From positions 1-64,000 of the IMG/VR virus record IMGVR_UViG_2778261179_000006: 64,000 nucleotides of DNA; one strand, given 5' to 3'. The DNA is from a virus (taxonomy: Duplodnaviria; Heunggongvirae; Uroviricota; Caudoviricetes). A program made the position numbers and the translations under genes. Shown here one piece after another: positions 53,372 to 54,103 of this stretch. Within the stretch, counting starts at the first letter, position 1, and each line of letters begins with the position of its first letter. The notes under the pieces were generated by a model. That model worked only from the letters and a program-made list of their open reading frames with translations, was not told the origin of the DNA and ran no database searches.

Positions 53372-54103
53372 CCTCTCACTCCATTATTTAACGAATAAAA
53401 AAGCTGCGGTGCCGGGTGCCTCCCGGTGTCCTTTGGCTGGTTATCCACCGTGGACGGGGAAACAAGGAGAAATGAATGGACTGATATAACCATTTCCCCG
53501 CGTGCGCTTAGCCGCATTCACCGCAACGGAAAGAGCATTCTTGGTGGACCTGTAGATTGGGATATGAACCCGTTACAGGAGAATGCTCTTACCTGTTACG
53601 TGCTCCGTTTCGTGGAGCTAACGGCGGGTGATCGGGCCGCACCAGGCTGGACTTATTTCAGCGTTATGCTCATGCCAGAGAATCAAACTGTGATGGTCGG
53701 TGCTGAACTCCGACACAGGGTTGTAGCAAGCCCCGCAAAGCGCGCACTACTGTAGTTGCGGCACATCAGCCTGTGCATTCACCACAATGTTGAGAACACT
53801 GGTTGTCACGCTGCAACGCAACATTTATTCGTAGATTGGGATATGACCCCGTTACGCCAGTGTTCTCAACGTTGTAGTGCCGGTTACGGTTCCGGCCAGG
53901 CCTCTTCCTCAACGGGGTGTTCTCCATACGGACTACCGTTTATTGGTCGTTCCTGCGGTTTATGTTGTGAAGCCAGATGCTTATCTTCTGGTTGCTTCAA
54001 AGAGCTGCACTTCATCACAACGGTAAGGGTACTTCGTAGGGATTCGAACCCTCTGCCAAGCTCGGCGATCTCCGACGTCGCAAAATACCCTTACCTGTTG
54101 TGC

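Follow-up and report, generated by a model that had tools for sequence, protein, structure and literature searches.

The 64,000-nucleotide (nt) stretch of DNA analysed here, positions 1 to 64,000 of the IMG/VR virus record IMGVR_UViG_2778261179_000006 and called the window below, comes from a P1-like phage (Punavirus) that is 99-100% identical to P1 isolates across 53100-54950. Downstream of a tRNA-Thr gene, on the minus side, lie about 730 nt in which no gene is called. We find that this gap consists of three tandem units of a bipartite RNA scaffold, each made of a long hairpin (H) followed by a closed domain (C), and that a fourth H hairpin stands upstream of the tRNA genes. The region is a conserved, strand-specific array of structured RNA in an untranslated phage leader, in which the frames of the units are conserved and their inserts are exchangeable. 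An earlier note on this DNA had described a canonical T arm, a perfect terminal stem around it, a twice-occurring 25-nt unit and an inverted repeat. All four features are present and far from chance, with the small corrections given below; what had looked like three separate oddities are parts of one H+C architecture, which is also widespread outside P1 and is found in phage λ.

The H and C modules

The H module was found by folding the flanks of a motif shared by the window and other phages, and the C module by following the RNA downstream. In the window, direct repeats (D1, D2 and D4) revealed the basal sequence shared by the four hairpins, CACAAC-(A)-GGUAAG... / ...CUUWCC-GUUGYG-GUGAAUGC on the minus strand. 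The consensus H is a hairpin of about 20 base pairs (bp) with the conserved stem CACAAC-A-GGUAAGAGCAUUG ... CAGUGCUCUUUCC-GUUGUG and an exchangeable payload of 25-96 nt. Directly after it comes C, with a 9-bp closing stem (GUUGUGGUG / CAYCACAAC) that encloses a spacer AAU, a hairpin hp1 (GCGCA-GGCUGA-UGCGC), a variable insert of about 30-180 nt and a last hairpin, hp3 (GCCGG-AGAUCAGCA-CCGGC), which abuts the 3' closing strand. The GUUGUG strand has two possible partners, the upstream CACAAC, which extends H, and the downstream one, which closes C. With its closing stem and the complementary loops of hp1 and hp3, C has the strand topology of a tRNA: acceptor, D, variable, T and a loop-loop contact.

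Do these modules behave as RNA? Members were gathered by exact motifs and stem filters, a procedure that selects neither for covariation between the loops nor for covariation in the H stem, except at two stem-base pairs fixed by the search motif. In an alignment of 60 distinct H stems, with the payloads cut out, the share of paired cells is 91.9%, and it falls to 33-66% once the partners are slid. Both sides change at 15 of the 22 pairs, one position is kept mismatched, and none of 500 shuffles reaches the observed values. A corresponding alignment of 60 distinct C domains, with the inserts cut out, is 96% paired, and nine pairs have changes on both sides. Complementarity of the loops, GCUGA in hp1 and UCAGC in hp3, holds for 97% of 71 C domains, whereas scrambled loops reach about 5%; the compensating loop pair GUCGA/UCGAC is found in three.

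The strand is equally marked. The H stems hold 96 G·U pairs against 24 A·C mismatches, and the window hairpin H-C scores 30.4 bits with R1, a covariance model of H, when read as the minus strand but 10.3 when read as the plus strand; together these indicate that the H helix is read as RNA of the transcribed strand. The family was defined by the order CACAAC-(A)-13-bp stem-payload-stem-GUUGUG-GUGAAU together with a match to R1 on the transcribed strand, and both are found in the window. R1 finds four H copies there, within 53522-54540 and always on the minus strand, with E values of 6e-6 to 0.0095; a scan of the remaining 64 kb gives nothing better than E = 0.2. Three of the four copies, H-A, H-B and H-C, belong to the training set of the model and so match by construction; the fourth, H-D, was outside the training set and is nevertheless found at E = 0.0095.

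The array in the window

All of the elements lie on the minus strand and are taken here in that order. H-D (54458..54545), upstream of the tRNA genes, has the arms GGUAAGGGCGCUG/CAGCGUCCUUUCC, a payload without a T loop, a fold z-score of -5.3 and the direct repeats D2 and D4. A hairpin, GCCGGAGACGUACCCGGC (54262..54279), resembles hp3 (consensus GCCGGAGAUCAGCACCGGC) and stands 4 nt ahead of tRNA-Asn, a position which suggests that tRNA-Asn occupies the slot of an H hairpin. To judge by the arrangement of the sequence, tRNA-Asn and tRNA-Thr may both fill the same kind of slot as the H hairpins.

The first unit begins with H-A (54016..54102; CACAAC-A-GGUAAGGGUAUUU ... AAGUACCCUUACC-GUUGUG), whose payload is tRNA-like and has no anticodon arm. 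Its C partner is a short domain of variant type (53964..54021; GUUGUGAUGAAG ... CCAGA-AGAUAAGCA-UCUGG ... CUUCACAAC) with the closing strands and an hp3-like loop; its fold z-score is -0.7, and homologous stretches occur in Sashavirus, in pJN2-26 and upstream of gene N in the P22-like phage SPN9CC. Next comes a non-coding spacer (53881..53963) that matches, with 87% identity, a likewise oriented non-coding gap of Citrobacter phage phiNP.

In the second unit, H-B (53780..53879; fold z-score -6.3) carries the 25-nt motif GUAACGGGGUCAUAUCCCAAUCUAC at 53831-53855. The inverted repeat that had been reported around this copy, with arms of 17/18 bp, is real and forms the arms of H-B, which are longer, at 23 nt, and 91% complementary (53780-53802/53857-53879). 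The C domain of this unit (53687..53788) is a full one, with every feature of the consensus: a closing stem AUUGUGGUG/CAUCACAGU, hp1 at 53761-53776 (GCACA-GGCUGA-UGUGC), a 46-nt variable insert, and hp3 at 53696-53714 (GUCGG-AGUUCAGCA-CCGAC). Here too the two loops are complementary, GCUGA of hp1 to UCAGC of hp3 (GGCUGA against AGUUCAGCA), and the minimum-energy fold recovers the architecture. The second spacer (53601..53686) is homologous to sequences in the Q-holin interval of Klebsiella and Cronobacter lambdoid phages. It contains a small conserved hairpin, GCUCCACGAAACGGAGC (53602-53618), that precedes H hairpins in many phages and lies immediately upstream in 12 of 66 family members.

The third unit opens with H-C (53522..53600; fold z-score -6.3), which has consensus-type arms, GGUAAGAGCAUUC/GAAUGCUCUUUCC, and holds the other copy of the 25-nt unit at 53552-53576. 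The unit occurs twice, as had been noted, and the two copies are 24/25 identical; it, GUAACGGGKUCAUAUCCCAAUCUAC, is a conserved payload with variants in lambdoid contigs. The closing domain (53397..53527; fold z-score -3.7) resembles the small RNA STnc100; a 9-bp stem, GUUGCGGUG/CACCGCAGC, closes it, and its 3' hairpin is CCGGG-AGGCA-CCCGG. Like the domain at 53964-54021, that at 53397-53527 is a variant C type, with the closing stem and hp3 only. The six U residues that come after the closing stem, at 53397-53402, belong to the downstream cassette of this variant, and reference P1 has no U-run. An intrinsic terminator at the 3' end of the array was considered and rejected, as a simple scan makes no call and the U-run is missing in reference P1.

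The tRNA-like core of H-A

The payload of H-A consists of GCGACGUCGGAGAUCGCC, a linker of 11-13 nt and AGGGUUCGAAUCCCUAC, set on a 7-bp acceptor-like stem (54081-54087 with 54030-54036, UAUUUUG pairing with CGAAGUA). A D-like hairpin with GG in its loop is at 54066-54080, and the T arm at 54038-54052 (AGGG-UUCGAAU-CCCU) is followed by A and then by CGAAGUA. The canonical T-arm word GGTTCGAATCC is confirmed at 54050-54040 (minus strand), as is the perfect 10-bp stem GGTAAGGGTA/TACCCTTACC, which lies at 54022-54031/54086-54095, about 4 nt away from its earlier placement in an element at 54026-54099. The terminal helix is longer than had been claimed, with 13-nt arms at 92% and the addition of CACAAC/GUUGUG, and the element extends over 54016-54102. 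The anticodon arm is indeed absent, whereas the statement that there is no proper D arm overlooked the D-like hairpin GCGA-CGUCGGAGA-UCGC. The element folds at -41.6 kcal/mol (z = -5.5), and none of 200 shuffles is equally stable.

The description of H-A as a tRNA-like element is thus supported by its T arm, its D-like arm and its acceptor-like stem. It shares with tRNAs a 7-nt UUCRANY T loop and a 3' acceptor strand directly after the T arm. It stays below what we required of a tRNA, an ARAGORN cloverleaf or at least 29 bits against Rfam RF00005: ARAGORN reports three genuine tRNAs and no extra one at 54016-54102, and the Rfam tRNA model has no match there even at E up to 10. It also has no free 5' or 3' ends and no CCA, and the acceptor-like stem runs on into a helix of about 22 bp.

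Is the element a decayed tRNA, as had been proposed? Searches with either half of the core find the same core in at least 29 sequence contexts, in P1-like, lambdoid and epsilon15-like phages. The stem beside it has compensatory substitutions at six pairs, and in contig L243 the core is kept while the whole outer helix is different. An almost unvarying core beside a flanking stem that is compensated or replaced is the signature of selection, not of decay. Only three of 122 occurrences of the 19-nt T-arm word (29 distinct contexts) look, by eye, like an ordinary tRNA, and T-arm-like words are found in about 14 of 50 payloads, as read off a list of the payloads and not counted by script. None of the sampled members of the family has an intact tRNA between its arms, so that the idea of the arms as processing stems round a tRNA is rejected as well. 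An obligatory linkage to tRNAs is likewise rejected: among the matches listed, a same-strand tRNA lies within 600 nt of 15 of the 76 members, and 60 of the 76 loci have no tRNA at all. We conclude that decay of a tRNA gene is not supported.

Relatives in other phages

A scan of IMG/VR viral contigs with one 16-nt motif yields at least 76 true members of the H family, with about 50 different payloads. Different pieces of the region, 60-300 nt long, have matches of 73-95% identity in the non-coding gaps of unrelated phages. Homologous segments in ten annotated phages all lie in non-coding gaps, oriented with local transcription. They occupy the Q-holin interval of Klebsiella and Cronobacter lambdoid phages, once directly after a tRNA array, and they follow tRNA-Asn/Tyr/Thr in SSU5-like phage-plasmids; others lie in the late operon of Sashavirus, in BUCT554 and, in phiNP, in the early-left region. 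Virulent phages with copies of the family are N4-like, T1-like or members of the Ackermannviridae. An exact match to a 30-nt core is found in the representative genomes of 18 species of the Enterobacteriaceae, Erwiniaceae and Yersiniaceae (Enterobacterales).

Phage λ itself has a copy. Positions 44786-44868 form a consensus H hairpin, immediately past tR', the terminator of 6S RNA, and partly under the annotated 'orf-64'; a C-like domain closed by GUUGUGCUG/CAGCACAAC comes next. The λ late-operon leader has one unit and no tRNAs, whereas the window has three units, H-D and two tRNAs. The λ leader has no Rfam match at E up to 1, and literature searches found no function for the segment at 44786-44868. 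We observe that orf-64 (44621-44815; L137 822-1016) overlaps the region of 6S RNA and tR' together with the first H arm. Like the P1 genes upl and plp, discussed below, orf-64 is probably not a protein gene.

In six lambdoid contigs the C-domain insert resembles helix 11 of 16S rRNA (E. coli 16S nt ~254-282). These inserts (L073 1953-1999, L074 3971-4017, and others in L057, L066, L130 and L136) match the Rfam small-subunit rRNA model at E = 3e-7, are 86-90% identical to the rRNA over 29 nt by blastn, and have compensatory stem changes.

Two virulent phages deserve mention. In IME11, a 2-kb stretch without an annotated gene (L138 1483-3569) contains the family motif, and in Magnus so does a run of 'hypothetical proteins' of 30-60 amino acids (aa) beside tRNAs (L139 1900-4450). 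These stretches suggest larger unannotated RNA arrays in virulent phages. In a separate observation, genes of the N4 gp49/Sf6 gene-66 family are found 0.5-2 kb downstream of members in the unrelated phages BUCT554, IME11 and pJN2-26 (L004 1549-1950; L138 3569-3991; L011 495-881).

Relation to known RNAs

Most of the H/C family is absent from RNA-family databases. Rfam has no match at all for the H hairpins, for the λ copy or for the C type that is commoner (GCGCAGGCUGAUGCGC ... GCCGGAGAUCAGCACCGGC), and on the region of the array Rfam gives, up to E = 10, only the tRNAs, a sub-threshold STnc100 and meaningless matches to miRNA hairpins. Literature searches found no description of the bipartite H+C architecture or of its kissing loops.

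The STnc100 match covers 53405-53525 on the minus strand (RF02076; 37.8 bits, E = 3.4e-6; model positions 31-147 of 206). The third unit shares with STnc100 a GGUGAAU start, ACCAG and the CACCGGGAGGCACCCGGCACC 3' hairpin with the closing strand; it has the closed STnc100 core, and the 9-bp closing stem is kept in the fold. It differs in that the match stops at 147, the 3' terminator hairpin of STnc100 (model positions 148-206) being absent. The genuine STnc100 of phage 933W scores 207.7 bits and lies downstream of stx2B. The settings are also alike, an untranslated phage leader near tRNAs and TerB-like genes, and the 933W STnc100 keeps a vestige of the 5' arm of H. PasD, which has been described as related to STnc100, is an abundant, Hfq-bound small RNA (sRNA) of prophages in enteropathogenic E. 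coli and has been validated by northern blotting (bioRxiv 10.64898/2026.05.13.724894). The alignment of the cores, the vestigial H arm and the link to PasD make STnc100 and PasD look like one branch of the C family.

Among the known RNAs closest to H-A are tRNAs and the tRNA-like domain of tmRNA. H-A resembles tRNAs in its UUCGAAU T loop, in its D-like hairpin with a GG loop and in an acceptor-like stem that runs straight from the T arm. Its nearest analogues are the bacterial Y RNAs, in which a tRNA-like module without a working anticodon arm sits on a long helix (PMC4201824). H-A, too, has a tRNA-like module on a long helix, and its stem-D-T-stem order matches that of D. radiodurans Yrn1. 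YrlA (RF02553) was rejected as an identity for H-A, on which the model has no match and in which the arm order is D-T, opposite to the T-D of YrlA. The only YrlA match (18.6 bits, E = 1.1) covers the two real tRNAs, and no rsr gene is present in the regions examined.

The hairpins of T7 early mRNA and the leader-trailer helices of rRNA are RNase III processing sites in long transcripts. The H hairpins are like them in being repeated, about 20 bp long, internally mismatched and placed between genes; they differ in that their payloads are conserved structured modules and not simple loops. The C4 RNA of P1 and P7 and the M3 RNA of φ80 are released from longer transcripts by RNase P owing to their likeness to a tRNA acceptor stem and T arm (PMC11143913). 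Unlike these, H-A has its acceptor-like stem within a longer helix, which is unfavourable for RNase P. As φ80 is a lambdoid phage, M3 RNA is a candidate member of the family.

Two other candidates were considered. Integron attC sites were rejected by reading, as the flanks do not fit RYYYAAC / GTTRRRY. The 3' arm of H (e.g. 53528-53540, minus strand) contains UGCUCUUU, the first eight bases of rrn boxA. A nut/boxA role was not adopted, since the motif is locked in the 13-bp helix and the bases that follow it differ, and the likeness is left unexplained.

Reading frames and cassette variation

The earlier note had also stated that no convincing open reading frame (ORF) covers the region. ORFs of 109 and 125 aa do span it on the plus strand, and in reference P1 they are annotated as upl and plp; the non-coding, RNA-like interpretation itself is supported. 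The best Pfam E value for the upl-frame ORF is 0.051, and plp has no Pfam match. The plp ORF has a TTG start and extends antisense into trnT, and its translation includes T arms read in antisense. The lengths and ends of the ORFs shift with each cassette variant, from 96 to 143 aa. RefSeq/PGAP annotation has no gene at the intact region in P1-like E. coli replicons, among those listed, and at the region in some variant P1-like replicons it has a tRNA-Ser or a hypothetical protein. The annotated upl and plp are probably spurious.

Variants found in nature differ in the manner of RNA cassettes. What is missing from SJ46 is precisely the sequence that separates the two 25-nt repeats; RCS47 contains a further unit, and in D6 and P7 a tRNA-Ser cassette fills the slot.

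Genetic neighbourhood

In minus-strand order the locus begins with Oban, a bivalent C1 operator, and Pban (inverted repeat 54911-54942). Between Pban and the tRNAs, at the end of what is called the dicF-like region in P1, is a terminator-like hairpin followed by U7 (54750-54731); the Rfam scan reports no DicF match at 54731-54750. The genuine tRNA genes found by ARAGORN are tRNA-Asn(GUU) at 54182-54257 and tRNA-Thr(UGU) at 54104-54179, which score 65 and 73 bits with Rfam. Some P1-like and SSU5-like elements have an extra tRNA-Tyr(GUA) between them (L002 1713-1799; L015 2873-2959). Downstream of the array, 52327-53371 (minus strand) holds a membrane ORF of 78 aa and a gene for a 275-aa SPFH/Band-7 lipoprotein (Pfam 1e-30), and then comes a tRNA with a CAU anticodon, trnI in P1. 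The 78-aa ORF and the SPFH gene replace tciA-tciB-tciC of reference P1, and the junction of this swap is immediately past the closing stem of the last RNA unit. Within the STnc100-like unit, 34 nt (53403-53436) that span its 3' hairpin and closing strand are 100% identical to a spacer in the chromosomal CRISPR arrays of several E. coli strains.

Discussion

What might such an array do? We think it fairly probable that the gap of about 730 nt is the non-coding, transcribed part of the C1-controlled ban operon, with scaffold units that function as outlined here. The units would be transcribed together with tRNA-Asn and tRNA-Thr and would fold into compact, tRNA-like bodies. RNase P, III or E, nucleases by which the host processes its tRNA and rRNA, could excise them from the long leader. 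The resulting stable small RNAs may act through their variable inserts, either as base-pairing sRNAs or as mimics of host RNAs, and the same cuts would part the tRNAs from the downstream mRNA. From their sequences, the units are probably processed, stable scaffold RNAs or processing elements.

Several points weigh against this proposal. The processing and the trans-action of the P1 and λ RNAs are matters that we infer only, and literature searches found no P1 transcriptome, no study of ban-operon RNA and no expression data for P1 or λ. The terminator-like hairpin at 54750-54731 stands between Pban and the array. Collection by exact motifs and stem filters inflates the percent-paired values and the invariance of the D-like hairpin, and the alignments were built with the variable inserts removed. 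The C domains are thermodynamically unexceptional (z = -0.7), and the STnc100-like unit scores below the Rfam gathering score of 47. Finally, the sequence of the H stem is conserved beyond what structure needs, which would suit a cis-acting site for a protein or RNase equally well.

This last point leads to the main rival, a purely cis role in processing, stability or opposing Rho. One might suppose that the elements are only leader RNA, with processing sites for RNase III or another enzyme, 5'-end stabilisers or Rho blocks, and that the payloads are neutral filler. RNase III substrates are of about 20-22 bp, and the H helix is of that size, with one conserved mismatch and a stem conserved beyond the need for pairing. 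The elements are always in untranslated leaders of long operons, 16 of 66 stand directly after a terminator-like U-run, as the λ copy does after tR', and the payloads are hypervariable. Against this stand a tRNA-like core and a 25-nt motif that are conserved across different arms, T-arm-like motifs in about 14 of 50 payloads, an insert that mimics 16S helix 11, and relatives, STnc100 and PasD, that accumulate as discrete Hfq-bound sRNAs. We regard the cis-only explanation as unlikely overall, though as one to be taken seriously. The earlier idea of a decayed tRNA, widened to a region of decayed tRNA genes and recombination scars in a tRNA island with no present function, seems to us improbable. 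A canonical T arm beside real tRNAs, tRNA-Ser or tRNA-Tyr in the equivalent slots of related phages, the gain and loss of units by recombination at the repeats and the same-strand tRNAs near 15 of the 76 members (among the matches listed) would all agree with decay. Yet the core hardly varies across 29 or more contexts in which its stem covaries, the T-arm word rarely looks like part of a tRNA (3 of 122, by eye), intact tRNAs are never enclosed and most of the listed loci (60 of 76) are free of tRNAs; moreover, the family reaches λ and virulent phages, and its covariation statistics are strong.

Cassette exchange takes place exactly at the repeats, and the elements mark mosaic boundaries between phage modules. 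Might the inverted repeats then work at the level of DNA, as recombination hot spots or module boundaries, cruciforms or single-strand initiation signals? The strand-specific excess of G·U over A·C (96:24), the model score of 30.4 against 10.3 bits and the constant orientation relative to transcription argue otherwise, and complementarity between loops is meaningless in duplex DNA, so that we consider a DNA-level role very improbable. To the plus-strand proteins Upl and Plp we give still less credence, next to none. Their ORFs are open and are annotated in NC_005856 and RCS47, and the plp frame stays open in close relatives. Against them stand, besides the lack of Pfam matches, the TTG start of plp, its antisense overlap with trnT and its antisense T arms, the ORF ends that vary by cassette (96 to 143 aa) and the listed intact replicons in which PGAP has no gene. 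Conservation follows RNA helices on the opposite strand, and the homologues, which share no reading frame, are found where no gene is annotated or beneath short hypothetical ORFs like orf-64 of λ.

A bolder extension of the scaffold proposal can be stated, which we offer as speculative and rather doubtful. The phages of Enterobacterales would have a natural tRNA-scaffold expression system, in which a conserved tRNA-shaped frame, made of the closing stem and the kissing hp1 and hp3 loops behind an H hairpin, is cut out by the tRNA-processing enzymes of the host and displays hypervariable inserts as stable small RNAs; engineered tRNA scaffolds are similar in that the frame stabilises the inserted RNA. 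Such a system suggests that the mimics of the tRNA elbow and of helix 11 are decoys for RNA-binding proteins or for RNA-targeting defence nucleases. Other inserts would be Hfq-dependent sRNAs like PasD and STnc100, and the P1 ban leader would be a three-slot array.

If the scaffold proposal is correct, a long-standing annotation is wrong in two model phages, and upl and plp of P1 and orf-64 of λ would give way to RNA genes. STnc100 and PasD, regarded until now as prophage sRNAs of pathogenic E. coli that stand alone, would become a branch of a much larger family of modular RNAs, found in temperate as well as virulent phages throughout Enterobacterales. There would also be a testable model for the release of tRNAs and small RNAs from long phage leaders, and the family may show how phages present mimics of host RNAs. 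A conserved frame with free insert slots would, in addition, be of practical interest as a natural scaffold for RNA expression.

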